63,975 bases of DNA, filler included, from Caldilineae bacterium (GCA_037446815.1; 8 parts of 8 records of this genome joined end to end with filler, not necessarily neighbours in it); one strand, 5' to 3'. Positions 3,047 to 63,975 are shown, counted from the first letter of the whole stretch. The notes: generated by a model not told the origin, from the letters alone. A program made the numbers and translations.

Positions 3047-3094
3047 GGAAGCGCCCTGGGCTATCCACGAAGAGCATGAATCCACGCGAATCGG

Positions 3095-3549
3095 GAGTTG
3101 GTTCCAAAGCCCGTTTGTCATTGCGAGGGCGCGGAGCGCCCGAAGCAATCTCCGAGGCGTGGGGTTGCTTCGCTTCGCTCGCAACGACACACGAGGAGAG
3201 TGCGCCTGCGGTTCACCAGCACAAGATGGAACCGAGTCGGGGCTCAGTTCCAAAGTCTGTTGGCATCTACCGTCATTCTGAGCGGCGAAGCCGCGAAGAA
3301 TCTCGCTGACCGAGATGCTTCGCCTTCGGCTCAGCATGACAGAGTGGGGAGGCAGCGCGCGGGACAGACCAACACAGTTTGGAACCGAGTCCGAATCGGG
3401 AGTCGGTTCCAAAGTCTGTTGGTAGTTGTCATTGCGAGGGCGCGGAGCGCCCGAAGCAATCTCCGAGGCGTGAGGTTGCTTCGCTTCGCTCGCAACGACA
3501 CACGAGGAGAGTGTACATGCGGTTCACCAACACAAGATGAAACCGTGTC
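3095..3549 (+). mobile_element. Tandem array of three MITE copies (3095-3238, 3241-3391, 3400-3549)
   Basis: Each is bounded by GAGTYGGTTCCA...TGRAACCGWGTC-like ends; 8-bp repeat CGAATCGG at 3087-3094 and 3392-3399, CGGATCGG at 3550-3557. Confidence 0.85.
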
Positions 3550-3564
3550 CGGATCGGCCCTCAT

Positions 3565-3593
3565 TTGGAGATTTCACCAATCGCGCGTATAAT
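3565..3593 (+). promoter_or_regulatory. Sigma70-type promoter TTGGAG-17-TATAAT
   Basis: Perfect -10 with 17-bp spacing. Confidence 0.65.
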
Positions 3594-7349: not shown

Positions 7350-7514
7350 GCACCTCTCCCCCCAAGCATACGGCCGCTATTGTACCGCATAGTGGCCACA
7401 TGCGCAAGCGCCAAAGGGGCCTGCCCGCGCCATGCCACGCCGGACCAGCCATCCACGGATCACGCGGCGAACACGGACCGGGCAAAGCAGAGCAAATTGG
7501 CAATTCCTCTACGA

Positions 7515-7679
7515 GATTCTTCGGCGCTTCGCGCCTCAGAATGACAGTCCCATTGTGTCATGCTGAGCCGAAGGCGATACGCCCTCGCCCTTCGGGAGAG
7601 GGCTGGGGTGAGGGGCGAGATTCTTCGCTCTCCGCCGCTCAGAATGACGGTACGTGCCAACAGACTTTGCAACCGACTC
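7515..7679 (-). repeat. REP-like cruciforms with a nested CCCTCACCCC hairpin, ending in a MITE terminal repeat
   Basis: GAGATTCTTC...CTCAGAATGAC and GTCATGCTGAG units; ends ...CCAACAGACTTTGCAACCGACTC. Confidence 0.75.
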
Positions 7680-7687
7680 CCCGCCAC

Positions 7688-7837
7688 GAGGCGGTTCCAA
7701 AGTCTGTTGGTGGCTGTCATTGCGAGGGCACGCAGTGCCCGAAGCAATCTCCGGGGCGTGGGATTGCTTCGCTTCGCTCGCAATGACACACGAGGAGAGT
7801 GCGCCTACGGTTCACCAACACAAGATGAAACCGACTC
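7688..7837 (+). mobile_element. 150-bp MITE
   Basis: Ends GAGGCGGTTCCA/TGAAACCGACTC; 8-bp duplication CCCGCCAC at 7680-7687 and 7838-7845. Confidence 0.9.
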
Positions 7838-7852
7838 CCCGCCACGAGGCGT

Positions 7853-7880
7853 TTGACACACCGTCGCAGTGCACTATACT
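7853..7880 (+). promoter_or_regulatory. Sigma70-type promoter TTGACA-16-TATACT
   Basis: Near-consensus hexamers upstream of the cytochrome c gene. Confidence 0.7.
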
Positions 7881-7939
7881 ACACTGCGAATGCACCTTGA
7901 CCGGTCGGATTTCTCTTGAAAGCCCTGTCGGAGGACACC

Positions 7940-8236
7940 ATGACCCCACAAACCATGCGAATCGCCCTCGGCCTTCTCGTGCTGATCCTAGCCCTGAGCG
8001 CCGTCGCGTGTGGCAACGCCCAGCAGCCCGCGCCCACGGCAGCGCAACCCGACGGCGCGTCCCTGCTCCAGGCGCGCTGCACAGCCTGCCACACCCTAGA
8101 CCGCGTGCAGCAGACAGCGCGCACGGCCGCCGAGTGGCAGACTATCGTTGCCCGCATGCGCGGCAAAGGCGCCCGCCTCACCGACGCGGAGGCGGAAGCG
8201 CTCGTGCAGCATCTCGCCCAGACCTTCGGCAAGTAG
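7940..8236 (+). CDS. Small monoheme cytochrome c lipoprotein
   Basis: Lipobox AVAC, CTACH, distal Met in ARMRGKGA; RBS GGAGG. Confidence 0.85.
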   Translation: MTPQTMRIALGLLVLILALSAVACGNAQQPAPTAAQPDGASLLQARCTACHTLDRVQQTARTAAEWQTIVARMRGKGARLTDAEAEALVQHLAQTFGK

Positions 8237-8695: not shown

Positions 8696-8795
8696 NNNNN
8701 NNNNNNNNNNNNNNNNNNNNNNNNNNNNNNNNNNNNNNNTTAATTAATTAANNNNNNNNNNNNNNNNNNNNNNNNNNNNNNNNNNNNNNNNNNNN
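8696..8795. other. Artificial contig spacer (also 17274-17373, 25469-25568, 33326-33425, 41141-41240, 48877-48976, 56599-56698; plain N gap 39252-39351)
   Basis: N runs containing TTAATTAATTAA, a six-frame stop linker. Confidence 0.98.
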
Positions 8796-8912: not shown

Positions 8913-8941
8913 TTTACAACGCGCCCCTCATTTGCTACAAT
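8913..8941 (+). promoter_or_regulatory. Sigma70-type promoter TTTACA-17-TACAAT (extended TG)
   Basis: Upstream of the xdh-type operon. Confidence 0.7.
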
Positions 8942-8982: not shown

Positions 8983-9855
8983 ATGTGGGAAGAATACCTC
9001 TTTGCCAACTCCGTGGAGCACGCGCTGCAACTGCTAGCCCACTACAAGGGCCGAGCGCAAATCATCGCAGGCGGCACCGACCTGGTGCTCCAGAGCCAGC
9101 GCGGAGAATGCCCCGCAACCGTGATGGTGGACATCACCCGTATCCCCGGTCTGGGCCTTATTGATGAGCGCGACGGGTACATCTTCGCCGGCGCGCAAGT
9201 TACGCACGCACAAATCGCCGCATCCCCCCTGATACGGGCGAAAGCGCCCATTCTCGCCATGGCGTGCTCGCAGGTCGGCGGGCCACAGACCCGCAACGCG
9301 GGCACCCTCGTCGGCAATGTCGTCAACGCCCAGCCCGCGGCAGACGGCGCCACGGCCCTGTTCGCGCTGGATGCCGAACTGGAAGTCGCCACGCTACAGG
9401 GCCGACGGTGGGAGCCGATTTCGCAAATCTATCGCGGCGTCGGCGTCTGCACCATCAACGCCTGCGAGGAGATGGTAATAGCCGTCCGCTTCAAGCCTCT
9501 GCGGGGCGCCTGCGGGTGCAGTTACCAGCGACTGGCCAGACGCAAGGCTCTCACGCTTCCGACGCTGGTCATCGCTGCGGTGCTGGAGATGCAGGGGGAC
9601 AACATCAGGGCAGCGCGGCTTGCCGTCGGGCCGGTCGCGCCCACACCCTACCGGGCCACCGACGCCGAGGCCTACCTCATCGGCAAGACGCCGGATGACG
9701 CGGTTTTCGCCGAGGCTGCCCAACTGGCCGCCGCCAAGGCCCGGCCACGCGACAGCCTCATACGCGGCTCCGCCGAGTACCGCACCGCCATGGTGGCCGT
9801 ACTGGTGCACCGCGCGCTGGCCGAAGCCGCGCAACAGTGCAGCGGGAGGCAGTAG
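8983..9855 (+). CDS. Xanthine dehydrogenase family FAD-binding subunit
   Basis: IIAGGTDL, VGGPQTRNAGTLVGN, RGSAEYR. Confidence 0.92.
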   Translation: MWEEYLFANSVEHALQLLAHYKGRAQIIAGGTDLVLQSQRGECPATVMVDITRIPGLGLIDERDGYIFAGAQVTHAQIAASPLIRAKAPILAMACSQVGGPQTRNAGTLVGNVVNAQPAADGATALFALDAELEVATLQGRRWEPISQIYRGVGVCTINACEEMVIAVRFKPLRGACGCSYQRLARRKALTLPTLVIAAVLEMQGDNIRAARLAVGPVAPTPYRATDAEAYLIGKTPDDAVFAEAAQLAAAKARPRDSLIRGSAEYRTAMVAVLVHRALAEAAQQCSGRQ

Positions 9856-17273: not shown

Positions 17274-17444
17274 NNNNNNNNNNNNNNNNNNNNNNNNNNN
17301 NNNNNNNNNNNNNNNNNTTAATTAATTAANNNNNNNNNNNNNNNNNNNNNNNNNNNNNNNNNNNNNNNNNNNNCGAAGGCGAAGCATCTCGGGCATGAGA
17401 TTCTTCGCGGCTTCGCCGCTCAGAATGACGGGAGCAACCGAATC

Positions 17445-17473
17445 TTGACAGGCGGCCGGCGGCGCGCGATAAT
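17445..17473 (+). promoter_or_regulatory. Sigma70-type promoter TTGACA-17-GATAAT
   Basis: Upstream of the DMT gene. Confidence 0.65.
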
Positions 17474-19699: not shown

Positions 19700-19935
19700 T
19701 GTATCCGCGAATAGCGCGAATCCGCACGAATGGTGGGGTGGAATTCTTCGCGGCTTCGCCGCTCAGGATGACGGTCTTGTTCTGTCATGCTGAGCCGAAG
19801 GCGAAGCATCTCGGGCATGAGATTCTTCGCGGCTTCGCCGCTCAGAATGACAGTTCGGCCGGGAAGGGCGTATCCACGAATGGCGCGAATGGTAAGGTGA
19901 GGTTCTTCGCGGCTTCGCCGCTCGGAATGGCCGTC
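19700..19935. repeat. Cluster of REP-like cruciform repeats and CGCGAAT-type short repeats
   Basis: Three TTCTTCGCGGCTTCGCCGCTC..ATG units. Confidence 0.8.
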
Positions 19936-25375: not shown

Positions 25376-25468
25376 GAGTCAGTTTCATCTTGTGTTGGTG
25401 AACCATAGGCGCACTCTCCTCGTGTGTCATTGCGAGCGAAGCGAATCAATCCCACGCCCCGGAGATTG
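25376..25468 (-). mobile_element. MITE copy (reverse), truncated by contig end
   Basis: GAGTCAGTTTCATCTTGTGTTGGTGAACC. Confidence 0.85.
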
Positions 25469-25568
25469 NNNNNNNNNNNNNNNNNNNNNNNNNNNNNNNN
25501 NNNNNNNNNNNNTTAATTAATTAANNNNNNNNNNNNNNNNNNNNNNNNNNNNNNNNNNNNNNNNNNNN

Positions 25569-25697
25569 CCGCTCTGTCATGCTGAGCCGAAGGCGATACG
25601 CCCTCGCCCTTCGGGAGGGGGCTAGGGTGAGGGGCGAGATTCTTCGCTCTCCGCCGCTCAGATTGCGGTAGATGCCAACAGACTTCGGAACCGACCC
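25569..25697 (-). mobile_element. MITE copy (reverse, type-2 cargo with nested hairpin), truncated
   Basis: GTCATGCTGAG...CCAACAGACTTCGGAACCGACCC. Confidence 0.8.
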
Positions 25698-25712: not shown

Positions 25713-25741
25713 TTGCCGAATCGCTGTCCTTATTGCATAAT
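25713..25741 (+). promoter_or_regulatory. Sigma70-type promoter TTGCCG-17-CATAAT
   Basis: Upstream of the LuxR-Kelch gene. Confidence 0.6.
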
Positions 25742-27109: not shown

Positions 27110-28012
27110 TCACAGCGGCGATTCGGCCAACTGCTTGAGTTTGGGCAGAGTCCCCTCCCAACTCATCTTGGACAAGCCCAATTTCAGCCGCAGGTGCTCG
27201 GGGTCCATGCCCGCGCGGAAATCGTGCAGCGCCGAAGTCATCCGCAGCATCTCAAAGGAGAGAGCGTCTACTCCGGCCAACTTCGCCAAGTCGGTGAGCA
27301 CGTATTCCAAGTTGCGCGCGGTGCAGGGGAACAGCACGTCCTTTGGCTGGTATTGCTGGCGGTACTCGCGGAGCGCCGCCACCGTTTCCGGCTTCAGCGC
27401 GAGCCGGCGCTCTTTGTACCGCGCGTACCTGGGATCGGTCGCGCGCACGCGCAGCGTCGCATGGGACGGGTCGGCGACCGACAAATCCTCCAGGCGTATG
27501 CCCATGCACTCGCTCTTCTTGATGCCAGTATCCAGCAGAAGCCGCACCAGAAGATATGGGCGCGCGTCGGGCTTCTCCGCCGTCCGAAGCGATTGCGCGG
27601 CCGCAAGCACGCTCTCCACCTGCGCGTCCGACAGCACCAGGGGCAGCGGCGTCGCAACGGGGCGATGGGCAATCGTCGCCGCGGGATCTACCGGGATAAC
27701 GCCGCTCTCCGCGAGCCATTTGAAGAAGACCTTCAACGTCGTTAGGCGGCGCGCGAACGACTTGGGCGTGCACGGCTTTCCCCGCTCGCGCTGCAAGTAC
27801 GTCAAGAAGCGGTTCAGATCGGCAGTGGAAATCTCCGAAACCCGAACTCCCGCGCCCAGGTAGTTGGCAAAGATGCGCAGGTCTCCCAAGAACGACTTGA
27901 TGGTATTCTCCGCGAACCCCTTGCGCTCCATGTGGCGGCGGAACGGCTCAAACGACTCACCCAGCGTGGGCGCCGCCCCGCTCCCCCACAAAGGCAACTG
28001 CTGCTCGTACAT
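27110..28012 (-). CDS. XerC/D-like tyrosine recombinase homolog with degenerate active site
   Basis: SAM-like N-domain (NTIKSFLGDL, ARRLTTLKVFF); box I DTGIKKSE; box II SFEMLR, LGLS. Confidence 0.8.
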   Translation of the reverse strand: MYEQQLPLWGSGAAPTLGESFEPFRRHMERKGFAENTIKSFLGDLRIFANYLGAGVRVSEISTADLNRFLTYLQRERGKPCTPKSFARRLTTLKVFFKWLAESGVIPVDPAATIAHRPVATPLPLVLSDAQVESVLAAAQSLRTAEKPDARPYLLVRLLLDTGIKKSECMGIRLEDLSVADPSHATLRVRATDPRYARYKERRLALKPETVAALREYRQQYQPKDVLFPCTARNLEYVLTDLAKLAGVDALSFEMLRMTSALHDFRAGMDPEHLRLKLGLSKMSWEGTLPKLKQLAESPL

Positions 28013-28110: not shown

Positions 28111-29058
28111 TTACTGCACCGCCACAGCGGGCAGCCACACCCTGCGCACGACGGGCGGCGGCTGAATCGGCGGGGGCATCGCCGTCGGCGTGCGTGTGGC
28201 CGTGGGCGTCGGCGTCCACGTGGGCGCGAAAGTCGGCGTTCGCGTCGCCGTGGGCGTCGCCGTCCATGTGGGCGTGGCGCTCGGCGTGCGCGTGGGCGTC
28301 GCCGTCCATGTCGGCGTTGCGCTCGGCGTGCGCGTGGGCGTCGGCGTCCATGTCGGCGTTGCGCTCGGCGTGCGCGTGGGCGTCGGCGTCCATGTCGGCG
28401 TTGCGCTCGGCGTCCGCGTCGCCGTGGGTGTTGGCGTGGGCGTCTGCCACGAGTGGCTAGCGAAATCCTGCGTCCAATAGTGATAGTATGGCCCGTAGGT
28501 GTCGTCGGCATCGTACACGTACCCGACGCCGATGTGGTGGTATGAGGGATTCAGAATGTTCGCGCGATGTCCAGGGCTGTTCATCCAAGCCGCCACAACC
28601 TGTTCAGGCGTCGTGTAGCCAGCCGCGATGTTCTCCCCGCATGTCCAGATGGGCGAGTATCCGGCGGCCGCCATGCGACCACACGCCGACGAGCCATCGG
28701 AGCCCGTGTGGTCAAAGAAGTTGTGGTCGGCCATATCCCGACTGTGGCCCAGCGCGGCCGCGTTCAGCGAGGCGTCGCTGATGAGCGGCGGCAGCCCCGC
28801 CCTGGCGCGCTCCTGGTTTGTCAGTTCAATCACCCGCTCCGCAAAGGTGGCCAGCGCCGCGGCGTCGGGGGCTGTGCCATCGTCTTCACCATGCGCCACC
28901 AACAGGAAATCCGCGCCGCCCGCCTCCGCGGGGTTAGCCCAGCCCGTCGGAGCATCTGCCGATGCGACGACCGTGGCAACGGCCACCATGAGGGCGAAGA
29001 TTCCTGCCACCCACACGCCCCGGCGCGGCCCGCGAATCCGTAACGTGCCCAATGTCAT
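28111..29058 (-). CDS. Exported CAP/SCP domain protein with Pro/Thr repeats (start approximate)
   Basis: [35 protein letters not shown]. Confidence 0.9.
28190..28445 (-). repeat. Intragenic 42-bp tandem repeat ([14 protein letters not shown], about 4 copies plus degenerate ones)
   Basis: Visible in DNA and translation. Confidence 0.85.
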
Positions 29059-29396
29059 CACCGTTGATCCAGATAGAGTCCGCCGACCCGCGAGCCGCAA
29101 CCCCAAGTCGGCGGTCAGAGTATGCCATGCGTTGGGTGTTCCGCCAAATTGCGCGTGCCCACGAGGAGCAGTCCGCGAGAACTGTCATTGCAGGGTGCAG
29201 AGGATGCGCAGTTAGATTATTCTCAGCGTTCTCTGGGTCTCTGCTGTGAGCCACGCAGCCGCAAGATCGGCCAAAACGCAAGAGTGCGAACATAGTACGA
29301 GATGAAACCGAGGGGTGCAGTCGGCGGAGTTGACATCCGGCCCAAACTCAGGTACCCTACACACCAGCAGCACAAGGCGCTTTCGGGGGGAAAGCC

Positions 29397-30380
29397 ATGG
29401 TGCAGTCGGTCTCATCTGGAACCGTGCTCGGCAATCGCTACAAAGTTCTGGGCCTCATCGCGCAGGGCGGGATGGGCGCGGTGTACAAGTGCAGCGACAC
29501 CCGCCTGGCCGGTCGCCTGTGCGCGGTCAAAGAAACGTGGATTGACCCCAAACTGTCCCCTGAGCAACTGAAACAGATGCAGGAGCAGTTCAAGCGCGAG
29601 GCGACCACCCTAGCCACCCTGGATCACCCCAACCTACCCAAGGTATCCGACTACTTCTCCAGTAGCGGGCGCCACTACCTCGTCATGGACTACGTGGCCG
29701 GTCAGGACCTGCTGACCCTCCTCAAGAGCCGTCCAGCGGAGAAGCCAGGTCTCCCCTGGCAGCAGGTGTTGGAATGGGCCAATCAACTGTGCTCCGCCCT
29801 GGACTACTTGCATACCCAGGACCCGCCCATCTTGCATCGCGACATCAAGCCCGCGAACATCAAACTGGCGGACTCCGGCCTCATCAAGTTGGTGGACTTC
29901 GGGCTGGTCAAGTGGATGGCCCCGGACGACAATTCCACCATCACGGTCATCCAGGGGCTGGGTACACTAGCATACACTCCCCTGGAGCAGTACGGCGGAG
30001 ATACCGGTCACACCGACCCGCGCACGGACATCTACGCCCTGGGCGCAACGTTGTACCATCTGCTCACCGGACAGGCGCCGGCCTCGGCGAAAGAGCGCTT
30101 CCTCAGGCCTAGCAGCCTGATCCCGCCGCAGCAACTTGCGCCCGACCTCCCGCCACACATCGCCGAGGCGATCCTGCGGGCGATGGCCATGCACCCGCAG
30201 GACAGACCGTCAACCGTCAGGGAGTTCCGTGCCCTGCTGAACGGGGAAAGGAGCCTGCTATCCCCGAGCATATCTGCACACCGGCCCACGTGGACCGCCA
30301 TCCTGCGCCGCGACCTGGCCCTCATCGTCCTAGCGGGGTTGCTCTTGCTGGCCTCGCTGCTGGTCTCTCTCGGATTCTAG
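29397..30380 (+). CDS. Hanks-type Ser/Thr protein kinase with C-terminal TM
   Basis: GGMGAVY, AVKE, HRDIKPAN, DFG, TPLEQ, DIYALG. Confidence 0.95.
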   Translation: MVQSVSSGTVLGNRYKVLGLIAQGGMGAVYKCSDTRLAGRLCAVKETWIDPKLSPEQLKQMQEQFKREATTLATLDHPNLPKVSDYFSSSGRHYLVMDYVAGQDLLTLLKSRPAEKPGLPWQQVLEWANQLCSALDYLHTQDPPILHRDIKPANIKLADSGLIKLVDFGLVKWMAPDDNSTITVIQGLGTLAYTPLEQYGGDTGHTDPRTDIYALGATLYHLLTGQAPASAKERFLRPSSLIPPQQLAPDLPPHIAEAILRAMAMHPQDRPSTVREFRALLNGERSLLSPSISAHRPTWTAILRRDLALIVLAGLLLLASLLVSLGF

Positions 30381-33230
30381 CCCTCCGCGATCCCCCACGG
30401 CGCGGCGAAGCGCATGCGCAACCCGGGCCATCGCGTTTGGCCTCGCCCAGCCCACCAACCCGGTAGCCACGCACAGTAGCCACGACACCACCGCCGGCTG
30501 CCAGCGCCAGGGAATCGCAGGGGGCGTGCCCTCCACGAGGACCGCCCGCCCCAGAATCAGCCCCGCCAGGCCGTAGGCCAGGTACCCCGCCAATCCGGCA
30601 CAGAACGCAACCAGCGCTGTCTCCACCGCAACTATCCTGCCCGCTCGCGGGTATACCAGCGCCCCCAGCGCCGTGGACAGCCCAAGCACCCCGGCCACAC
30701 TCAGCAGGAATGCGTAGATGTCCAGCGGGCGCGAAGGCGCTGGAGATGGCGACGCCTCTCCCGGGAAGACCGCAACCGGCGTCGGCTGCGGCGTTGCGGT
30801 TGCCGTCGGCGTCGGCACCAGTGTGGAGATCACCGCCGGCTGATCGCCGCGCACCGAGACCAACAACTTCGCCGACTGCGTCGCCTGCCCTGCCGTAACG
30901 CTCACCTCAATAGTGCCCGGCTGCTCCAACTTCAGGCGCACGCGCGCCTTGCCGTCCGTCGTCTTCGCCGTCTCCTGCCGCGACAGCCGCGACTCGGCGT
31001 CCGAGAACAGGAACGTTACGGCCGTCCCATCGGGCACGGGCTTCCCATTGCGGTCCACAATCACGCCGGTTGTGAGGACAAGTTCATCCCCAAGCCCCAG
31101 ACTCACCTGCCCCCCGTTGGTTCCCGAACCTTCGCCCCCGACCGGCTCCACGTATAGCATCTGGTCGGGCGCCGGTTGCAGTCGCTCGGGCAAGCGATAC
31201 CCCACAGCGGCCACAGACACCGGCGACTTGCCCACAGGCGCGATTTCGCCGAACAGCGCCCGCAGGCCGGCTTCTATGGCCCATTCGGTCGCGCTATACA
31301 ACCCGTAGTACACGCTCACCTTTGCAACATCTGTGGAATCCAGGCAATAGGGTGCTCCCAAAGCGAACACCACGACGCGCTTGTCGCGCAACAGCGCCGC
31401 CTCCTGGCGGAGGAACGCGGCAAGCGGATTCGTGGCCGCGCCCACGGGCGGCCCGCAGCCCTGCGCCACAAACAGCACCCACCCGGCCTGAGCGATCGCC
31501 TCCTGCAGGCGCGCCGGGCCTTCGTCCGCGCTGCCCGCCAGCATCCCGGCCAAATCGTCAAACGTAAACGAGAGGACGCGGGTCATATCCAAATGCCCAC
31601 TGCCCTCTTGCCCGTACAGGCGCTGGAGGACGCGAAGCGTGGTGCCCGATGGCGGCTGTTCCGTCGGCTCGCACCCCTCGCAGGCGGCCTGCGCCACGAC
31701 CTCCTCCACGATCACGACGCGGTCGCCGACTCCCGGGGGCGTGGGCATCTTTGCCGCCAACTCCTCGGGCCGCGGATAGATGACGGTTACCGCCTGCGCG
31801 GCGATGGCCGACATATCCTGCGCGCCCTGGCCCGCCGTCGGGGGCAAATCCCCGCTAGGGACGACCGCTTCCGCGGTGAAACGCGGATACAGGCGCAACT
31901 TCGCCGCCAGGATGCGCCGAACGCTATCGTCCACCCGCCCGCGGAACGCCGCATCCGACTGATACTTCGCCTGGAAGAATTCCAATGTCTCGCGCACGCT
32001 GGCGAAATGCTCGTCCCAATCCCCCATTGTCGGGCCGACCATGTCCAGCATCAGAATATCGTTGCCTGCCAGGAACGCATCGTAGGCCGCCCGCTTGGCC
32101 TGGAATCCTTCCCCCTTCGGATCGTAATACAGGCGCACCGAACGCGCGCCCAGAGAATCGCTCACCAGCAACCCACCGTTGCTGCGCCACTCGTCAACGG
32201 GGGACTGCGACAGGAAGAAATACAAAGCCTGCGAGTCCAGGCTCGCCGGCCTTGCCATCTGCGTGCTGGCATTGATGCTGTGGAACTGGACGTGCGTCGT
32301 GAGCATGCCATCCAGGACGTCATCCGCCTCGGGCGACGCCGGGCGGGTCAGCGCCACGAACGGAAGAGCATCCGTCGCCAGTCGGTTCTCCAGCGAGTCC
32401 TGAATCACCGGTATCTCTGTGTACACATCCCTGTCCGCAACGCCCAGGCCCGGGAAATGCGTGCCGACGCTCAAGACGCGGCCCCCAGACCCCGCATGCA
32501 CCCCCCGCACATACGCCCTGCCCATCACCGAGACCCAGTAGGGCGATTCGCCGAAGGTGTCCGTTCCCAAATCTCCGAGCAGCCCACCCCGCGTCGGGTT
32601 GGCCACATCCAGCGGGGGGCCGAGTAGCACGTTCACGCCGATGGCGCGGAGCAAATCCCCCGCCTGGCGGCCCGCTCGCTCGGACGCGCTCGGATTCCAT
32701 GTTGCGCCCAGCGTCATCATGCTCACTTGCTGATACGCGCTCGTCCCATCGTGCAACAGCGCCATGTCCGAGGAACTCATCGCGACGAACAGCGGCAAAG
32801 CCACCGATTCTGCAACGACAGAGGGCGTGGGCGCTGCTCCCTCCGCAGTAACCGCTGGAGTCGCCGTTGGCGTCGCCGTCCCCAACGGGCCCGCGGAACC
32901 TCCCAGCGCGACGCTCTGGAGAGAGGCGACAAGGTCGCGGAGCGCCTGCGCGTTCCCCGCCACGGGCGACAGATTCCCATTCCGCGCAGCCACCATCACC
33001 CCGCCGATGCGATACGTCTGCACCAGGCCCACCACCTCCGCCAGGCGGTCGGGCGGGAACCCAACCAGGAACAATTGCCCGACCCGCTCCGCTGGCGTCA
33101 TGCGCGCCAGCAGCGAATCCACATCCCCGGCAGTCGCCTGGCCGCCGACGGGCGCAGGCCACGCCGCGCCGGCCACCATCAGCCACAGTAGGGCTATGAG
33201 CACACAACTGCGCGTTCTACGACGCATCAT
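30330..33230 (-). CDS. Membrane-anchored glycoside hydrolase family 3 (NagZ-like) protein
   Basis: Signal peptide, MTPAERVGQLF, LGATW, GPPLDV, HFPG, SDSL, AGND; C-terminal TMs; 3' end overlaps the convergent kinase. Confidence 0.85.
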   Translation of the reverse strand: MMRRRTRSCVLIALLWLMVAGAAWPAPVGGQATAGDVDSLLARMTPAERVGQLFLVGFPPDRLAEVVGLVQTYRIGGVMVAARNGNLSPVAGNAQALRDLVASLQSVALGGSAGPLGTATPTATPAVTAEGAAPTPSVVAESVALPLFVAMSSSDMALLHDGTSAYQQVSMMTLGATWNPSASERAGRQAGDLLRAIGVNVLLGPPLDVANPTRGGLLGDLGTDTFGESPYWVSVMGRAYVRGVHAGSGGRVLSVGTHFPGLGVADRDVYTEIPVIQDSLENRLATDALPFVALTRPASPEADDVLDGMLTTHVQFHSINASTQMARPASLDSQALYFFLSQSPVDEWRSNGGLLVSDSLGARSVRLYYDPKGEGFQAKRAAYDAFLAGNDILMLDMVGPTMGDWDEHFASVRETLEFFQAKYQSDAAFRGRVDDSVRRILAAKLRLYPRFTAEAVVPSGDLPPTAGQGAQDMSAIAAQAVTVIYPRPEELAAKMPTPPGVGDRVVIVEEVVAQAACEGCEPTEQPPSGTTLRVLQRLYGQEGSGHLDMTRVLSFTFDDLAGMLAGSADEGPARLQEAIAQAGWVLFVAQGCGPPVGAATNPLAAFLRQEAALLRDKRVVVFALGAPYCLDSTDVAKVSVYYGLYSATEWAIEAGLRALFGEIAPVGKSPVSVAAVGYRLPERLQPAPDQMLYVEPVGGEGSGTNGGQVSLGLGDELVLTTGVIVDRNGKPVPDGTAVTFLFSDAESRLSRQETAKTTDGKARVRLKLEQPGTIEVSVTAGQATQSAKLLVSVRGDQPAVISTLVPTPTATATPQPTPVAVFPGEASPSPAPSRPLDIYAFLLSVAGVLGLSTALGALVYPRAGRIVAVETALVAFCAGLAGYLAYGLAGLILGRAVLVEGTPPAIPWRWQPAVVSWLLCVATGLVGWARPNAMARVAHALRRAVGDRGGLESERDQQRGQQEQPR

Positions 33231-36612: not shown

Positions 36613-36737
36613 GCGTGCACCTCACGGGCGAAGCCTGGCCCCTATTATACCCGTCTGGGCAAGAGAAGCAAACTTGCATTCGGCCATCAGCCATCAGCGG
36701 GTAGCCGTCAGCCTTTGGCTGTTAGCCTTTGGGTGGC

Positions 36738-39182: not shown

Positions 39183-39412
39183 AGGGCGTTGCGAGCCTCC
39201 TCCGCCATTATAGGACGGTGGTGGGGATGGGGCAACTCGGCGCGGTGGGCGNNNNNNNNNNNNNNNNNNNNNNNNNNNNNNNNNNNNNNNNNNNNNNNNN
39301 NNNNNNNNNNNNNNNNNNNNNNNNNNNNNNNNNNNNNNNNNNNNNNNNNNNGCGGGGCGGCGCAGGGCCAAAGCCAGGCCGCATCGCGGCCATGGTTCCA
39401 TTTCCACGAGTC

Positions 39413-41140: not shown

Positions 41141-41408
41141 NNNNNNNNNNNNNNNNNNNNNNNNNNNNNNNNNNNNNNNNNNNNTTAATTAATTAANNNN
41201 NNNNNNNNNNNNNNNNNNNNNNNNNNNNNNNNNNNNNNNNCCTCGCCCCTCCCCTCACCCCAGCCCTCTCCCGAAGGGCGAGGGCGTATCGCCTTGGGCT
41301 TCGCATCGGGAGCGGAAGTGCGACGCACCTCGGAGGTGCGTCGCACGTTCCCCATTCGCGTGGGTTCGTGCCCATTCGCGCTATTCGTGGATGACTTCTC
41401 GCAGGCTA

Positions 41409-43942: not shown

Positions 43943-44172
43943 AACGTGCGACGCACCTCCGAAGTGCGTCGCACGTTCACCATTCGCGGAGATTCGCGCT
44001 TATTCGCGGTTGCGAAAAGTGTCATTCTGAGGCGCGAAGCGCCGAAGAATCTCCCGCCCCCTATCCGTTCAATCCGCGTTATCCGTGGATACCGTCTCTC
44101 TATTCGCGCAGATTCGCGCTATTCGCGGTTGCGAAAAGTGTCATTCTGAGGCGCGAAGCGCCGAAGAATCTC
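43943..44172. repeat. GTGCGACGCAC palindrome plus duplicated ATTCGCG and REP units
   Basis: AACGTGCGACGCAC-CTCCGAA-GTGCGTCGCACGTT; ATTCGCGGTTGCGAAAAGTGTCATTCTGAGGCGCGAAGCGCCGAAGAATCTCC twice. Confidence 0.85.
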
Positions 44173-44178
44173 CCGTCC

Positions 44179-44841
44179 CTACTCGGTAAAGCGAAACTTC
44201 ACGAGTGCCCACAGCGCGGGCAGACCGTCGCGCCACGGCGACAGTTTCTTCTCCTTGCGTGGCGTGTACGAAATCGGCACCTCGTAGATGTGGTGCCCGC
44301 GCTTCAGAATCTTCGCCGTTACCTCCGCCTCCAGGTCAAACCGATTGCACGTAATCCGAAAACTCTGCATCAGTTCCCTGTCCACCAGTTTGTAGCACGT
44401 CTCCATGTCGTGAATGCGGGAGCCGTAGATAAGGTTCGTGGCCCATGTCAGGAACTGATTGCCCAGGCGGATGAACGTCTTCTGGCCCTTGAGCGACCGC
44501 ACGCCGTACACCACCTTGGCCTTTTCCGCCACCATCTTATCCACCAGTTTGTGGTAGTCGTTCGGGTCGTACTCCAGGTCGGCGTCCTGGATGATAATCG
44601 CGTCGCCCTGGGCGGCGGCGATGGCGGTGCGGATGGCCGCGCCCTTCCCCTGATTCTTGGGGTGGTGAATCACGCGCAGACCTGGGATGTCCAGCCTGTC
44701 CAGGATTTCGCCGGTGCCGTCGGTGGAGCCATCGTTCACGATGATGATCTCCTTTTCCACGTCCACTTCTGCCACGCGGCGGATGAGCGACTCAACGGTG
44801 GGGGCCTCGTTGTAGGCCGGAATCAACACGGAAAGTTTCAC
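44179..44841 (-). CDS. Glycosyltransferase family 2 (polyprenol-phosphate glycosyltransferase-like)
   Basis: IPAYNE, NDGSTDGT, NQGKGAA, QDADLEYDP, DMETCYK. Confidence 0.95.
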   Translation of the reverse strand: MKLSVLIPAYNEAPTVESLIRRVAEVDVEKEIIIVNDGSTDGTGEILDRLDIPGLRVIHHPKNQGKGAAIRTAIAAAQGDAIIIQDADLEYDPNDYHKLVDKMVAEKAKVVYGVRSLKGQKTFIRLGNQFLTWATNLIYGSRIHDMETCYKLVDRELMQSFRITCNRFDLEAEVTAKILKRGHHIYEVPISYTPRKEKKLSPWRDGLPALWALVKFRFTE

Positions 44842-48035: not shown

Positions 48036-48440
48036 CTATGCCCACTCGGTGGGCACAAGGGCGCAGCACTTGACCAACTCTTGGGCCGCCTTGACGTTCT
48101 TCATAATCATGGTCATGTTGCCCTTGAGTTTCAGTTTCCGCGTCATCAGGCCCTGAATGGGGTCCAACTGCGCCTTGATGACCCGCACCCACGTGTCGTA
48201 GGCGGCGCTCATGACAAACGCGGGGTTCTTCTCGCTGGGGTCGGTGATCCCCTTCGCCTCGCGGCACTTGCCGTGCCACAGGTCCATGTACAGGATGGCC
48301 TGTTCAGTCAGGGGGCCGCCCGGCTCCACGATGAAGTAGAAATCGCCCTCCCAATTCTTGGCGGCCTCGGCGTAGGCTTCGCTGCTGTTCAGCGCCTCGC
48401 ACAGGGCAACCACCCACTCATGAGACGGAAACTTCGGCAT
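48036..48440 (-). CDS. SCP2 sterol/lipid-binding domain protein
   Basis: [30 protein letters not shown]. Confidence 0.88.
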
Positions 48441-48610: not shown

Positions 48611-48640
48611 ATTATACAAGGGGAGGCGTAGAGGTGTCAA
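48611..48640 (-). promoter_or_regulatory. Sigma70-type promoter TTGACA-18-TATAAT
   Basis: Upstream of SCP2-ADH-AOR. Confidence 0.8.
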
Positions 48641-48655
48641 CCGCCCCAAAACGAG

Positions 48656-48876
48656 GAGTCGGTTCCAAAGTCTGTTGGTGGCTGTCATTGCGAGGGCACG
48701 CAGTGCCCGAAGCAATCTCCGGGGCGTGGGATTGCTTCGCTTCGCTCGCAATGACACACGAGGAGAGTGCGCCTGCGGTTCACCAACACAAGATGAAACC
48801 GACTCAAAACGAGGAGTCGGTTTCATCTTGTGTTGGTCTGTGCGGCGCACCGCCTCCCCGCCCTGTCATGCTGAGC
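48656..48876 (+). mobile_element. 150-bp MITE (48656-48805) plus adjacent inverted truncated copy (48814-48876)
   Basis: Ends GAGTCGGTTCCA/TGAAACCGACTC; 8-bp duplication AAAACGAG at 48648-48655 and 48806-48813. Confidence 0.92.
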
Positions 48877-49138
48877 NNNNNNNNNNNNNNNNNNNNNNNN
48901 NNNNNNNNNNNNNNNNNNNNTTAATTAATTAANNNNNNNNNNNNNNNNNNNNNNNNNNNNNNNNNNNNNNNNNNNNTGACAGATGGGGGCCAACGTGCGA
49001 CGCACCTCGCAGGTGCATCGCACGTAACCGCCTTCGCGTGGATTCGCGTTATCGCGGTTTTGTATCCGAGCGCAAACCGTGCTACAATGCAGGCTAACGT
49101 TGGGCCAAGCCATTGTCCCACAAAGGGGGAGGAGAAAG

Positions 49139-56065: not shown

Positions 56066-56335
56066 GGGTCGTGCACCCTTCCTTGACCTGCATCCCCTGG
56101 CTTGCCCGACCAGCCAACTCCGGTCAGGCGACCCTGCGTCACCCAGAAAGCACTCCTTACCGTTGCTTCCTCCCGGACCTGGCGGGGTTCGGAGGTTTCT
56201 GCCGCGCAGGACCCAACCTTCACCGCCGCTTGATCGGAGCAGTCCCAAGGAATCACAGGCCTCAAAAGGGCATTCAACCCCGCTATAGCGGATTGCGGGT
56301 ACAGGGCACCGCTAGCTCCCCGTTTAGCACGACCC
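56066..56335 (-). ncRNA. ffs: Large (Alu-domain) bacterial SRP RNA
   Basis: 5' GGTCGTGCTAAACGGGGAGCTAGCGGTGCCCTGTACCCGCAATCCGCTATAGC; domain IV GCCAGGTCCGGGAGGAAGCAAC; paired 5'/3' ends. Confidence 0.93.
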
Positions 56336-56376
56336 AAGATGATGTTACCCGATGGCGCCGAGAATGTCAAATGAAA

Positions 56377-56464
56377 TGGCGGAGAGGGTGGGATTCGAAC
56401 CCACGGAGGATTGCTCCTCACGCGATTTCCAATCGCGCCGATTCGTCCGCTCTCGCACCTCTCC
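56377..56464 (-). tRNA. tRNA-Ser (GGA)
   Basis: Cloverleaf with CGCGA-TTGGAAA-TCGCG anticodon arm, long variable arm, GTTCGAATC, encoded CCA. Confidence 0.97.
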
Positions 56465-56480
56465 GCGCACGAGCGATGGA

Positions 56481-56509
56481 ATTATACGTGCGCGGCGCGG
56501 AATTGGCAA
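56481..56509 (-). promoter_or_regulatory. Sigma70-type promoter TTGCCA-17-TATAAT for tRNA-Ser
   Basis: Near consensus. Confidence 0.8.
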
Positions 56510-56598: not shown

Positions 56599-56698
56599 NN
56601 NNNNNNNNNNNNNNNNNNNNNNNNNNNNNNNNNNNNNNNNNNTTAATTAATTAANNNNNNNNNNNNNNNNNNNNNNNNNNNNNNNNNNNNNNNNNNNN

Positions 56699-57298: not shown

Positions 57299-57366
57299 AG
57301 GCGCAATCGGTTGATGGTGCGCATTATAGCGTGCTTTTCACAGCGCGCAACAATGGCTGCGGGTCG

Positions 57367-57517
57367 CCCTCGGTCCCAGTGTCTGGTTGGTGGCTATCAT
57401 TGCGAGGGCGCGGAGCGGCCGAAGTAATCGCCGGGGCGTGCGATTGCTTCGCTTCGCTCCCAATGAAACACGATGAGAGTGCGCCTACGGGTCACCAGCG
57501 CAAGATGAGGCCGACTC
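57367..57517 (+). mobile_element. Diverged 151-bp MITE
   Basis: Same internal sequence with many substitutions; 8-bp duplication GCGGGTCG at 57359-57366 and 57518-57525. Confidence 0.85.
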
Positions 57518-57583
57518 GCGGGTCGCCCTTATCAATGCGGCGGCTTCGGGGTATGCTCCGAAAAACGCATGTGGAGGTGGGCC

Positions 57584-58412: not shown

Positions 58413-58575
58413 AACGTGCGGCGCACCTCCGAGGTGCATCGCACGTTCCATATTCGCGGGTACGCTTCTGCCATTCCCACGAAGCGGCGCAGAATCTCAC
58501 GCCCATATCCGCCCAATCCGTGTTATCCGTGGATGCTTCCCCCGAGGCGCGTTGCACGTTGCGTATTCGCGGTCA
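58413..58575. repeat. GTGCGRCGCAC palindrome plus ATTCGCG/ATCCG short repeats
   Basis: Same units as 43943-44172. Confidence 0.75.
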
Positions 58576-61600: not shown

Positions 61601-63496
61601 CGCGGTGGGGATGCTCATGCCCATCACGTCCGCCATGGCGGCGGGGACCTGCCCTGCGGCCAGGGTGAGGGTTCCGCGTTCGGCATCGTGCTCCCACGCC
61701 GTACCCTCGCGCACGCCCAGCGCGGCGACAGCCTCGTCGGCCAGGATTTGGAGAATCTGGCGGCTGTCCAAGGTCAGGGCCGCCCTCTCGGCCAGGCGGT
61801 TGAGCACAAGCGCGTGGTTCAGGCGCTCTTGGGTCTGCCCCAGCAGGCGCAAGCGGCCGATGGAAAGGGCGACGAGATTGGCCATGCGCTCCACGGCGTT
61901 CATCTCGTCGGGCGCGAAGGCATGGTGCTGGAAGTAGCCGATGGTGAGGGCGCCCAGTTTGCGGCCCTCGGCGATGAGGGGGAAGGCCGCCGCCGACTGA
62001 ATCGGCTCGCCCACGACCAGGTCGGGCTTGTAGTAGGGTGAATGGTTGAAGTCGTGCACGACGATGGGATGGGCCGCGTCAAGCACCTTGCGCGTCAGGG
62101 TGGGGCGATCCGCCTCGGCTACCGGCGCGAACGTGCGTATGGTGTCGTGGCTGGCCCCGCTGGACGCGGCCAGGCGCATCTCTTCGCGCTTCTCATCCCA
62201 CAGTGTAACGTAGCACACGTCGGCCCCGATGAGGTCCGCCACGCGATCGGCGGTGATCTTGAGGAGCGCGGGCAGGTCCTGGGCCGACGAGGCGATGTGG
62301 GCGATTTCGGCCAGGGTGTTGAGTTCGGTTACCTGGCCTTCCAGGCGCGCCCGATCGCGGTGCTGCCGGGTGAGGTCGTGCGCCACGGCCAGGAACCCGG
62401 GCTCGGGCCCCGATACGCGGGCTACATTGACGCCCACGGGAAACGTCGTTCCGTCGCTACGGCGGGCGACGCCTTCAAACTGGGCGGGGCCATCCGCCGG
62501 GACGCCCCGGAGCCACTCGCGGATTCGCTTGCCGGCCTCGGCGTCGGCGAAGTCCTGCGCCCACAAATACCACATGGGCATCCCGATGAGTTGCTCCCGA
62601 GTGTAGAGGAGTTGTCTCTCGGCCTCTCGGTTGCAGTCGCGGATGACCCCGCGCTGGTCGCAGAGGGCAACGATATCCGGCGCTGCGGCGAAGAGGGCTT
62701 GATAGCGCGCCTCTGCTCCCTCCAGGCTGCGGCGGGTGGCGGTCAACTGGGCCAGGATGTCCAACGCGCCCGACTGGGGCTCGGCAGAGGCGTGGCGGCG
62801 GCGCAGGAAGATGATGAGCCCGGGCATGATGTACAGCCCCACGAGGATGCGCGCCACGAGCGCGGCGCCGAGCATGCCATAGTACGGTACCGGTTCGGGG
62901 TAGAACAGGCTGCCGACAATGAGCACGGCGGCGGCGATGGACGGGATGAGAATAAGCGAGAGGGCGATGGCGGCCCACCGCGGCAGGCGCAGCCGGTGGC
63001 TCAACAGCGCATACACGGGGATGACCGCGAGAAGGCCCGCGGATTCGGCTACGACGGCCGAGATGCCCAGCAGCCAGACTGCGCCCAATGGGATGGACTC
63101 CAGGGGGTGGAGGCCGAAAGCCGGGGCCAGCGTCAGCCCCAGCATCCACGTGATTGTGAAGCCCGCCAGCGCGGTGAGCAGTCCTGCGAGCATAGAGCGC
63201 GCGCTGCGGATTCCCTCCAGGATGTAGGCGATGAGCAGGGCGGGGGGTAGCAAGGTGAGGAGAATGCCCGCGATGAGAAATCGCCTTTCGGGCGAGGCGC
63301 CCAGCACGCCGCCGAAGTAGGCAATGGATAGCGCCAGGAGCTGGATGAAGGTGATTGCCGAAGCCGAGGCCGTCCTTCCGAGGCGATAGGCGAACATCGC
63401 CAGCGCCTCAAGGGCGGCTATGGCGAGAAGCAAGGTAACGATGAGTCCCAGACCAAAACCGGCCACGAACGCCCCCCAAAGCGATGTGAATCGCAT
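58610..63496 (-). CDS. Hybrid sensor histidine kinase (multi-TM, PAS, 5 GAF, HisKA, HATPase, REC)
   Basis: AHDFNN, NLIANAVDA, DTGVG, PFFSTK, GTGLGL, VDDE, TDLGMP, KP; promoter TTGCCA-17-TATACT at 63513-63541. Confidence 0.95.
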   Translation of the reverse strand: MRFTSLWGAFVAGFGLGLIVTLLLAIAALEALAMFAYRLGRTASASAITFIQLLALSIAYFGGVLGASPERRFLIAGILLTLLPPALLIAYILEGIRSARSMLAGLLTALAGFTITWMLGLTLAPAFGLHPLESIPLGAVWLLGISAVVAESAGLLAVIPVYALLSHRLRLPRWAAIALSLILIPSIAAAVLIVGSLFYPEPVPYYGMLGAALVARILVGLYIMPGLIIFLRRRHASAEPQSGALDILAQLTATRRSLEGAEARYQALFAAAPDIVALCDQRGVIRDCNREAERQLLYTREQLIGMPMWYLWAQDFADAEAGKRIREWLRGVPADGPAQFEGVARRSDGTTFPVGVNVARVSGPEPGFLAVAHDLTRQHRDRARLEGQVTELNTLAEIAHIASSAQDLPALLKITADRVADLIGADVCYVTLWDEKREEMRLAASSGASHDTIRTFAPVAEADRPTLTRKVLDAAHPIVVHDFNHSPYYKPDLVVGEPIQSAAAFPLIAEGRKLGALTIGYFQHHAFAPDEMNAVERMANLVALSIGRLRLLGQTQERLNHALVLNRLAERAALTLDSRQILQILADEAVAALGVREGTAWEHDAERGTLTLAAGQVPAAMADVMGMSIPTAQLPRIRDLGWERRPILIPNAQDDARLAPLQDLMRRFGMETLILAPMEAHGRMYGLLALDGTGRPSLTDAEMDLLASIAHYGALALETANLYAETVGRQRLAETLREVGMALSSTLDYDEILDRILDGLARVVRCDAANIQLIQGGEARIIRGRGYEQFGVAPDMYTLSLPLEKAPLLTQMVETRRPAIVRDVLAEPRWYAPEAWQGRAPFCRSWMGAPIVIRDEVIGFINADSIAPNAYSEQDADTLALFAAQAGVALENARLYAEAQEQHSIAEALRQAAVALSSSLNPEEVLDQILVLLERVIPYDAANIQTIRDGRVILSRLRGYERIGPDAERAAREAFFFAREVPNLRTMLQTGKPHVIPDTWADPQWVKSPGLEWIRSWAAAPIIVQDEVVGFINVDGAEPGKYGPRHTRILEAFARQAAGALRNAMLYEQSQHQLQQLAAIYRVGQRLQQLQPPIALAQEAIRALADVIGYEHGGVMLLHEQTGDLETVALIEKDMDAPSLAAEMERVRAFGIRLGHGITGWVAEHGESLRVDDVREDPRYIAVRDEMRSELCVPMKVGDRVIGVVNVESVRLAAYSESDQRVLETVAAQLAVAIHNARLYEDLQRAYEQLKLSQDEAMRAERLRALGQMASGIAHDFNNVLTPVLGYLELALENPTMPDEVRSDVERARRGALAASSIVARLREFYRPRDAAEPFAPVDLNRVIREAVDLTRPRWRDIPQEQGLVIDTRLELGPSPRVQGDAAALRDLLTNLIANAVDAMPNGGTITIHTQTDGDRVLLSVTDTGVGMTEEVRRRAFEPFFSTKGSQGTGLGLSICYGIVQRHGGTIDLQSEPGKGTTVLIRLPISAEALPLGQDETLPALPPLTILLVDDEDAVRAVIGRMLTRAGHKVIMAGGGEEAIREIQKRHPGEISVVITDLGMPQVTGREVARASKSHTPQTPVILLTGWGGKTGQELIAPQDVDDILTKPVQSTDLHRALARVLGLLKSA

Positions 63497-63560
63497 CGTT
63501 CGCTAGAGTACAAGTATATGCACAATTGCGCGGGTTGGCAAGTGGCGCATGCGCGCGCGG

Positions 63561-63975
63561 GAGTCGGCTCCAAAGCCTGTTGGTATTTGTCTTTGCGAGG
63601 GGCGGGGCGCCGAAGCAATCGCCGGGCCGTGGGATTGGGGGGCCAACGTGCGACGCACCTCCGAGGTGCGTCGCACGTGCCCCTCACCCCAGCCCTCTCC
63701 CAGCGGGCGAGGGAGCACGACCGCGCGGGGCTAAACCCCCGCGCTGAGGGGAGGAAGCCCCTTCGGGGCTGCCCCCTCTTCGCGTGGATTCGCGTTATTC
63801 GGGGTTGCCAGAACTGTCATTCCGAGGCGCGAAGCGCCGAGGAATCTCGCCTTCCCCCTGTCCGCCCAATCCGCGCCACCCGCGGATGACCCGTGCACAG
63901 CGCGGGGCTAAACCCCCGCACTGAGGGGAGGAAGCCCCTTCGGGGCTGCCCCCTCTTCGCGTGGATTCGCGTTAT
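63561..63975. repeat. MITE left end followed by a mosaic of several REP-like families with a tandem duplication
   Basis: GAGTCGGCTCCAAAGCCTGTTGG; GTGCGACGCAC palindrome; CCCTCACCCCAGCC hairpin; GCGCGGGGCTAAACCCCCGC...TTCGCGTGGATTCGCGTTAT twice. Confidence 0.8.

Follow-up and report, generated by a model that had tools for sequence, protein, structure and literature searches.

The sequence examined here, which we call the window, is a 63,975-nucleotide stretch of DNA from Caldilineae bacterium (GCA_037446815.1) with a G+C content of 66.2%. The window is made of draft-assembly contigs joined by decreasing size and is no continuous piece of chromosome. Pfam annotation of 52 window open reading frames (ORFs) returned ordinary housekeeping and regulatory genes, with a phage-integrase-family gene at 27110-28012 as the sole recombinase. 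Within these 64 kb lie approximately 18 copies or fragments of a 150-bp element, seven of which are cut by contig ends. These repeats are a family of miniature non-autonomous transposons (miniature inverted-repeat transposable elements, MITEs), and most of their ends that face unique DNA stand at one narrow distance from the -35 hexamer of a predicted promoter.

Complete copies of the element measure 144-151 bp and are bounded by imperfect terminal inverted repeats of approximately 25 bp. Both ends start with GAGTCGGTTYCA and contain TGTTGG, the element ends read 5'-G...C-3', and the left-type end (GAGTCGGTTCCAAAGTCTGTTGG) and the right-type end (GAGTCGGTTTCATCTTGTGTTGGTGAACC) are similar yet distinguishable. 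The inverted-repeat 12-mer was matched 22 times in the window at two or fewer mismatches versus 7.0 matches expected, a count that was reached in none of 100 shuffles. An nhmmer profile built from four full copies aligned over 150 bp (3400-3549, 7688-7837, 34344-34493 and 48656-48805) recovered the other window copies, with the exception of the decayed copy at 29160-29314. The element is non-coding, with no ORF inside. Its core is a long palindrome (canonical core sequence GTCATTGCGAGG...), and the whole MITE (48656-48805) folds as a long hairpin of -43.3 kcal/mol (z=-6.2). An Rfam search at the gathering threshold gave no match to the MITE, a signal recognition particle (SRP) RNA being the sole match in the window. 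Duplications of 8 bp were present at all five complete copies with both flanks visible, namely CGAATCGG/CGGATCGG (3400), CCCGCCAC (7688), CGTAGCAC (34344), AAAACGAG (48656) and GCGGGTCG (57367); these duplications are GC-rich and not conserved in sequence. An earlier interpretation made from the window alone, hereafter the sequence-only reading, had described a non-autonomous element, and the inverted repeats, the duplications and the lack of an ORF bear this out.

In variant copies the canonical ends flank another palindromic unit, which has GTCATKCYGAG at its borders. Units of this second repeat family are 60-95-bp palindromes with the bounds GTCATKCYGAG...CTCRGMATGAC (16 motif matches versus 0.3 expected); they occur both as free-standing clusters and as the core of the variant MITEs. 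They were located at 3272-3340, 7490-7648, 17374-17429, 19717-19931, 33426-33634, 43981-44179 and 63776-63855. The canonical MITE core appears related to this unit, and a similar unit occurs in locus L027 of another genome.

In describing the individual sites we use d for the number of base pairs between an element end and the adjoining -35 hexamer. The first array comprises a promoter-distal 144-bp copy (3095-3238, +; nhmmer 149.8 bits; left flank CGAATCGG), a middle variant whose palindromic core, GTCATTCTGAG...CTCAGCATGAC, lies between the same inverted repeats (3241-3391, +), and a promoter-proximal canonical 150-bp copy (3400-3549, +; 173.6 bits) between the duplication copies CGAATCGG (3392-3399) and CGGATCGG (3550-3557). 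The promoter TTGGAG-17-TATAAT (3565-3593, +) follows at d=15 and leads into an ORF starting at 3622/3764; an alternative reading of it, TGGAGA-16, gives d=16. The canonical MITE at 7688-7837 (+; 175.5 bits; CCCGCCAC at 7680-7687 and 7838-7845) has distal to it a one-ended variant element (7551-7679, -) consisting of palindromic units and an inverted repeat at 7649-7679. Its promoter, TTGACA-16-TATACT (7853-7880, +; d=15), lies upstream of a cytochrome c gene (7916-8236). A MITE cut by a contig start (8796-8897, -) presents its inverted-repeat end at 8897 to TTTACA-17-TACAAT (8913-8941, +; d=15) upstream of a CoxM-like gene (8983-9855), and a variant element likewise cut (25569-25697, -) presents its inverted-repeat end at 25697 to TTGCCG-17-CATAAT (25713-25741, +; d=15) upstream of a LuxR-Kelch gene. 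The degenerate old copy at 29160-29314 (+) is recognisable by a right-type end (…GATGAAACCGAGGG) and the GTCATTGC motif only, and TTGACA-17-TACCCT (29330-29358, +) stands at d=15 from 29314, upstream of a Ser/Thr kinase gene (29397-30380). The 10-mer GTGCAGTCGG occurs twice here, 85 bp apart (29315-29324 and 29400-29409), bracketing the promoter by the decayed MITE and overlapping the kinase start; the pair may be coincidental or may be left over from an ancient rearrangement.

Further element ends face promoters on the opposite strand. A MITE end cut by a contig end (33298-33325, +) lies at d=15 from TTGACC-17-TATACT (33254-33282, -), upstream of a GH3 gene (30330-33230). The canonical copy 48656-48805 (+; 177.7 bits; AAAACGAG at 48648-48655 and 48806-48813) lies at d=15 from the 12/12 promoter TTGACA-18-TATAAT (48611-48640, -) upstream of an SCP2 gene (48036-48440), and a second, variant copy that shares the AAAACGAG spacer (48814-48876, +) is cut by the contig end. 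At d=16 are the right-type end 56526 of a MITE cut by a contig end (56526-56598, -), facing TTGCCA-17-TATAAT (56481-56509, -) with a predicted start approximately 10 nt before tRNA-Ser, and the end 57367 of a diverged 151-bp copy between divergent promoters (57367-57517, +; 119.1 bits; GCGGGTCG at 57359-57366 and 57518-57525), facing TTGCGC-16-TATAAT (57323-57350, -) upstream of an XRE/cupin gene ending at 57298. At the other end of this copy, 57517, a weaker promoter lies at d=11. A partial MITE, the left half (63561-63637, +; 47.3 bits), ends 19 bp from TTGCCA-17-TATACT (63513-63541, -), upstream of a gene for a 1628-aa sensor kinase.

Several copies depart from this arrangement. The canonical MITE at 34344-34493 (+; 170.5 bits; CGTAGCAC at 34336-34343 and 34494-34501) has no promoter on either side; its target holds the stop codon of a transaldolase-like gene, and the left duplication copy keeps the stop. 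The left end of a MITE cut by a contig end (17142-17273, +) faces the 3' end of an ABC-2 permease gene with no promoter, and the right-type end 25376 of another (25376-25468, -) faces the 3' end of a patatin gene. A variant element cut by a contig start (17374-17444, -) has a shortened inverted repeat, 17430-17444, as its end. This remnant is ambiguous, as it either abuts TTGACA-17-GATAAT (17445-17473) at d=0 or leaves d=15 from the palindromic unit end at 17429. The sequence-only reading had named six sites at d=15 (3549, 7837, 8897, 25697, 33298 and 48656), the tRNA and XRE promoters at d=16, the end 63561 at d=19 and the exceptional copy 34344, and every one of these coordinates and hexamers was reproduced.

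The fixed distance was evaluated by scoring every window position for matches out of 12 to TTGACA-(16-18)-TATAAT. A score of at least 9/12 is reached by only 37 of 125,858 positions, and one of 8/12 by 173. The 37 collapse to 31 separate sites, and at ten of these the -35 is preceded by an element end at 15-19 bp. Element ends number 24, with 8 at junctions inside arrays and 16 facing unique DNA. When the best outward promoter of at least 8/12 was taken for each of these 16 outer ends, d was 15 at six, 16 at three, 11 at one and 19 at one, with none at five. When 16 intergenic positions were drawn at random 2000 times, the highest count in any 2-bp bin was 0-2 promoters in 1988 of the draws and 3 in the remaining 12, versus 9 of 16 observed. 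Target choice in this genome is not random, and the enrichment over random intergenic positions that the sequence-only reading had anticipated is present within the window. Promoters face six left-type and four right-type ends, and either end of the element can therefore face one, as had also been claimed.

The MITE-adjacent promoters behave as a property of the host. All are directed outward from the element, with a gene or tRNA 10-170 nt downstream of each, in agreement with the orientation previously proposed. The inverted repeat is separated from the -35 by the duplication. Outside the hexamers, the flanks of the seven d=15 copies have a mean identity of 29%, and TTG is their sole invariant feature. 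As a calibration of promoter prediction, TTGACA-17-TAACAT at 56370 (56334-56370, -) places the start within approximately 2 nt of the 5' end of the Rfam SRP RNA. The association is with complete promoters and not with the -35 alone, because a -10 of at least 4/6 accompanies 6 of 7 MITE-adjacent -35 hexamers versus 10 of 131 other intergenic ones; across all 138 intergenic TTG-type -35-like hexamers, such a -10 is present in 16 and absent in 122. A separate feature of the seven d=15 copies concerns the 5 bp past the duplication (about -42 to -38; flank positions 8-12), where 33 of the 35 cells hold a G or C against a background of 66%; this could be a target preference or a local property of the promoters.

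Three arrays lie within single contigs: 3095-3549 with three copies, 7551-7837 with two and 48656-48876 with two. The copies in them are spaced by exactly the flanking 8-mer, one spacer in the 3095-3549 array being reduced to 2 bp. The members of an array come from different subfamilies, and they therefore represent separate insertions into the same 8 bp. In both arrays with scored members the promoter-proximal copy has the highest nhmmer score (173.6 versus 149.8 and 35.3 bits; 175.5 versus 20.7 bits). Re-insertion at the same site with the best-conserved copy proximal is the expectation for a target that is defined by the promoter. Arrays spanning contig joins were rejected as real tandem arrays, the joins being artificial.

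A scan of genome contigs with a 23-nt inverted-repeat pattern returned at least 62 loci. Among the matches listed, at least 34 were judged to bear the element, 33 from Anaerolineae, Caldilineales, Chloroflexia or Chloroflexota and one from Planctomycetota; the other 28 are single matches within unrelated sequence of other phyla and were used as a control. Locus L027 holds a complete MITE that is 82-84% identical to that of the window and has d=15. Duplications of 8 bp are also present at L010, L015, L024, L027, L043, L053, L057, L058 and L060. Among the matches listed, an outward promoter of at least 9/12 lies within 40 bp of 19 of 47 non-redundant ends; in the controls the count was 75 of 7667 for windows drawn at random within these loci, 1 of 47 for promoters pointing inward and 0 of 28 for the chance matches from other phyla. 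An ORF of at least 80 aa starts within 300 nt in the same direction at 15 of these 19 ends, 11 of the 15 having a clear coding G+C pattern. No tRNA was found downstream of the promoters in L002, L010, L015, L017 and L052.

The distances at these 19 ends are bimodal, with 12 ends at 2-8 bp, six at 13-15 bp and one at 24 bp. Six loci of one Chloroflexota metagenome-assembled genome (MAG) have d = 4, 4, 5, 5, 5 and 5 (L017, L032, L034, L043, L059 and L060), an Anaerolinea MAG has d = 15, 15 and 15/16 in three of its four loci (L015, L037 and L049), and a Chloroflexia MAG has d = 7 and 8 in two of its three loci (L053 and L058). The distance thus appears to be lineage-specific at 4-5, 7-8 or 15-16 bp, a consistent pattern in small numbers. 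In the short-distance class the duplication ends in the TTG/TTGA of the -35 (L024, L043, L060) or touches the -35 (L053, L058). The two main registers are approximately 10 bp, or about one helical turn, apart.

No transposase was found in the window by Pfam annotation of the 52 ORFs or by a transposase homologue search, as the sequence-only reading had stated. Candidate autonomous partners were found, among the matches listed, in other genomes only: at L002, L008, L017, L024 and L053, a single ORF of 427-459 aa lies between paired inverted repeats spaced 1.3-1.5 kb. Transposase fragments are present at L023, L032, L035 and L056, and no transposase homologue was detected in L036, an apparent 1322-bp element. 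The protein exceeds the 21-bit cut-off of Pfam Transposase_mut (PF00872), with scores of 25-35 bits. At its N-terminus is a four-cysteine ribbon; further features are the invariant D171, D234 and E354, which would form the catalytic triad, and a C..H motif following the second aspartate. Its AlphaFold model (pLDDT 87.1, pTM 0.85) has as best structural match in the PDB the IS256-family ISCth4 transposase (E=9e-9, 369 columns, TM 0.49-0.52). No PDB relative was detectable by sequence, a profile match of PDB sequences to melanophilin (E=0.02) being rejected as chance. Results from the NCBIfam models all fell below their cut-offs: IS256 (NF033543) scored 26-63 bits versus 150, and ISH6 (NF041731) 24-50 bits versus 240, with the AT-rich AANATNTT target likewise not seen. 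ISKra4 (NF033572, cut-off 205) gave 15.4 and 22.4 bits in 2 of 13 representatives with no match at E<=1 for any of the three locus transposases, and ISLre2 (NF033529, cut-off 200) gave 16.1 and 22.4 bits in 2 of 13 representatives and none for the locus transposases. The family contains at least 1615 proteins at E<=0.001 among 8000 scored, mostly on contigs of approximately 1.5 kb, and 555 representatives at 50% identity. Matches in the ESM Atlas were to unnamed or generic 'Transposase_mut' clusters only, and a tblastn search of plasmids with the transposase gave no match. Judged from its protein sequence, this is an apparently unclassified clade of the Mutator/IS256 superfamily. The sequence-only reading had expected a Mutator/IS256-superfamily transposase flanked by the repeats, of ISLre2 or ISKra4 type. 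The former is present in Chloroflexota MAGs; the latter assignment fails on the NCBIfam scores.

Taken together, we place the probability that the element is a promoter-targeting MITE moved by a Mutator-type transposase at roughly 0.85. The earlier suggestion of a promoter-guided Mutator/IS256 transposase in a Chloroflexota-like host gains support from the approximately 1.5-kb MAG elements, which share the repeats, pass Transposase_mut, fold like ISCth4 and abut promoters. Most likely, the MITE is moved in trans by the approximately 430-aa Mutator/IS256-superfamily DDE transposase of such insertion sequences, which are common with MITE inverted repeats in Chloroflexota and absent from the window. 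The element would probably be copied out as a circle and pasted in by an 8-bp staggered cut, a route suggested by the ISCth4 fold match together with reports on p-MULT elements (PMC3942029). In this genome the 8-bp target lies 8-15 bp upstream of a predicted sigma70/sigmaA-type -35, at about -50 to -43, so that the element end stands 15-16 bp from the -35 in either orientation, and insertion leaves the promoter and its proximal upstream region intact. Because the promoter would define the site, later insertions strike the same 8 bp, and arrays grow as target-MITE-target-MITE-target-7 bp-(-35), the newest copy being the one next to the promoter. The whole promoter would be sensed, most likely as the RNA polymerase-sigma complex, as proposed for TnGBS; recognition of polymerase-bound promoters is favored because a -10 is needed and poor -35 boxes are tolerated.

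Several observations weigh against this account. The link between MITE and transposase is a similarity of inverted repeats at approximately 18 of 23 positions across genomes, and no cognate MITE-transposase pair was found in the window or among the matches listed. Within the window, copy 34344-34493 has no promoter, and the ends 63561 (d=19), 57517 (d=11) and 17444 (perhaps d=0) deviate from the register. The sample is small, at 64 kb of joined contigs of approximately 8 kb plus at least 34 loci elsewhere, and the promoters, as consensus predictions, are presumed to fire. In other genomes the distances are 4-5 or 7-8 bp with the duplication overlapping the -35; such overlap is hard to square with bound sigma and may reflect direct reading of DNA instead of tethering to polymerase.

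That last point leads to an alternative that we regard as unlikely, although by no means fanciful, in which the transposase directly reads -35 DNA (TTGAC-like) at a fixed distance without polymerase and the -10 appears through the real promoters that survive. The duplications that end in TTG/TTGA or abut the -35 in the short-distance loci fit it, since the overlapped positions should be occluded if sigma region 4 were bound, as do TTG as the sole invariant flank feature in the window and registers one helical turn apart. Intergenic -35-like hexamers without a -10 nevertheless outnumber full promoters 122 to 16, yet six of the seven next to MITEs have one, and several of the -35 boxes used are poor matches (TTGGAG, TTGCGC, TTGCCG, TTTACA). 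Random or weakly biased insertion, with purifying selection leaving only copies harmless to genes and promoters, is very improbable. Insertions in coding DNA or inside promoters would indeed be lost, the intergenic DNA is crowded with several repeat families, and copy 34344, which lacks a nearby promoter, lies at the stop codon of a gene. Selection, however, would set a minimum distance and no spike, and 9 of 11 promoters within 60 bp lie at 15-16 bp; the identical 8-bp target is re-used in three arrays, and the distances in other genomes are equally sharp yet different.

Two further explanations address the promoters and the arrays, respectively. Some insertion sequences and MITEs have outward-facing promoters, and the promoters could in principle belong to a longer repeat that carries its own; we give this next to no credence, as the inverted repeat and the -35 are separated by the 8-bp duplications, the flanks are only 29% identical outside the hexamers, and the length of the spacer and the sequence of the hexamers vary from site to site. 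The arrays, in turn, might stem from attraction to the ends of a resident copy or from dimers, with no re-targeting defined by the promoter. Ends lie 8 bp apart in all three arrays, and inverted repeats abutted at 6-10 bp are the form of IS256-type circle or dimer junctions (PMC3942029). We consider this improbable: array members that differ in subfamily cannot be dimers of a single copy, the spacer is identical to the outer duplication, and the single copies at 8897, 25697, 29314, 33298, 56526 and 57367 keep the 15-16 bp register with no neighbour, such that this explanation would account for the arrays only and leave the register over. Insertion guided by the promoter remains our preferred interpretation.

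Classical bacterial MITEs such as Correia, RUP, ERIC and Nezha are short, non-coding elements with inverted repeats, target duplications, many intergenic copies and hairpin potential. The present element resembles them in being short, non-coding and multicopy, with inverted repeats, target duplications and a hairpin; we know of no classical bacterial MITE that stands at a fixed distance from a host -35. A limited open-access literature search found no report of a promoter-register MITE or of the present transposase clade. The p-MULT hallmarks, as given by Guerillot et al. 2014 (PMC3942029), are inverted repeats of 18-39 bp with a terminal C and duplications of 8-9 bp, and the present element has repeats of approximately 25 bp, a terminal C and 8-bp duplications. 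The same paper reports predicted sigmaA promoters 13-17 bp from the repeat-genome junction for TnGBS/ISLre2 (p-MULT 3) and for 13 ISKra4-group elements (p-MULT 4), four of the latter from Ktedonobacter; duplications in p-MULT 3/4 are 8-9 bp, and symmetric inverted repeats are associated with insertion in both orientations (PMC3942029). For ISKra4 and ISLre2 transposases, a signature motif with a conserved Asp is described between domains N1 and N2 (PMC3942029). The sequence-only reading had cited ISLre2/TnGBS as precedent, and their insertion upstream of promoters stands; as a precedent it was too narrow, since ISKra4-group elements, some of them from Chloroflexi, also target promoters (PMC3942029).

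With the ISKra4 group (ISKra2/4/5/6) the present system shares a Mutator DDE transposase, near-symmetric repeats, promoters at 13-17 bp on either side and members in Chloroflexi (PMC3942029). It differs in that its transposase fails NF033572 and scores higher on IS256 and ISH6, in its MITE form (the term 'MITE' is absent from the text of PMC3942029 as available) and in the 4-5 and 7-8 bp registers of its relatives, which the accessible sections of that paper do not describe. With TnGBS/ISLre2 it shares insertion 15-17 bp upstream of a sigmaA -35, duplications of 8-9 bp, a Mutator-type DDE enzyme and a proposed contact with the transcription machinery (PMC3942029). TnGBS/ISLre2 are reported there to insert one way, as set by asymmetric repeats, whereas either end of the present element faces promoters; the ISLre2 model gives at most 22 bits, the phylum is another, and the present element has no conjugation genes. 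The IS256 family (ISCth4, IS256) provides the best structural match and the best NCBIfam and Pfam scores, and copy-out/paste-in chemistry with duplications of 8-9 bp would be expected by analogy. Insertion of IS256 is nonetheless reported as random, and that of ISH6 as preferring an AT-rich 8-mer (PMC3942029), and the present transposase reaches at most 63 bits versus 150. Promoter-adjacent placement has so far been described, according to the accessible sections of PMC3942029, for two other branches of the superfamily only, ISLre2/TnGBS and ISKra4. Promoter-targeted Mutator-like transposition is therefore of a known kind; what is new is that it takes a MITE form, involves an apparently unclassified transposase clade and uses registers that appear specific to lineages.

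The remaining features of the window concern its assembly and its genes. The window contains eight N blocks, seven of them linkers that join contigs and read N44-TTAATTAATTAA-N44 (8696-8795, 17274-17373, 25469-25568, 33326-33425, 41141-41240, 48877-48976 and 56599-56698); the eighth is a plain 100-N gap at 39252-39351. The stretches between linkers shrink in order (8695, 8478, 8095, 7757, 7715, 7636 and 7622 bp), and linkers and shrinking stretches together identify the window as a concatenated draft assembly. The joins being artificial, neighbours across them are not contiguous in the genome, and the N runs, as linkers, were rejected as masked repeats. Of the 14 contig ends that meet at the joins, at least 9 lie within MITE or palindromic repeats, an indication that the assembly is broken up by such repeats. 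In a third repeat family, short repeats of the CATTCGCG type come after a GTGCGACGCACCTC-N-GAGGTGCGTCGCAC hairpin; its five copies (41318-41380, 43946-44008, 48995-49057, 58416-58478 and 63648-63710) include several near contig starts. ARAGORN placed tRNA-Ser at 56377-56464 (-), and the SRP RNA lies directly downstream of it (56069-56332, -). A RuBisCO large-subunit-like gene (1081-2352) adjoins a URO-D-like gene at the window start. At 28164-28451, adjoining a CAP-domain gene, is a long imperfect tandem repeat of the GCGTSGGCGTC type with an 18/24-bp period and frames open on both strands. Runs of GGCTGAT/GGCTGAC heptamers occur at 34530-34575 and 36640-36670, upstream of the genes at 34584 and 36612.

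A broader proposition, which we advance tentatively and at somewhat short of even odds, is that Chloroflexota widely harbor a third lineage of Mutator-superfamily transposases, distinct from ISLre2/TnGBS and ISKra4, which recognises promoters as a whole and inserts at discrete registers that vary from lineage to lineage. The 8-bp target would overlap the -35 in some genomes (d=4-5), abut it in others (d=7-8) or stand one helical turn upstream (d=15-16), with MITE offspring occupying a large share of promoters. If so, MITE ends would constitute a base-precise promoter map of uncultured bacteria, and the arrays would record the order of insertion events; as a map, this was tested on the 64 kb of the window and at least 34 loci of other genomes. 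How a DDE transposase finds promoter-upstream DNA is still unexplained for TnGBS, ISLre2 and ISKra4. The register variants of 4-5, 7-8 and 15-16 bp would provide matched enzymes with which to locate the sensing domain and to distinguish sensing of polymerase from sensing of DNA. The ends of the element would mark promoters to the base in unculturable organisms for which transcription-start data are lacking, and its copies would account for the approximately 8-kb assembly pieces of such MAGs. For the host, insertion would swap the distal upstream region of a promoter for a common inverted repeat or hairpin, and this may insulate or retune many genes at once.

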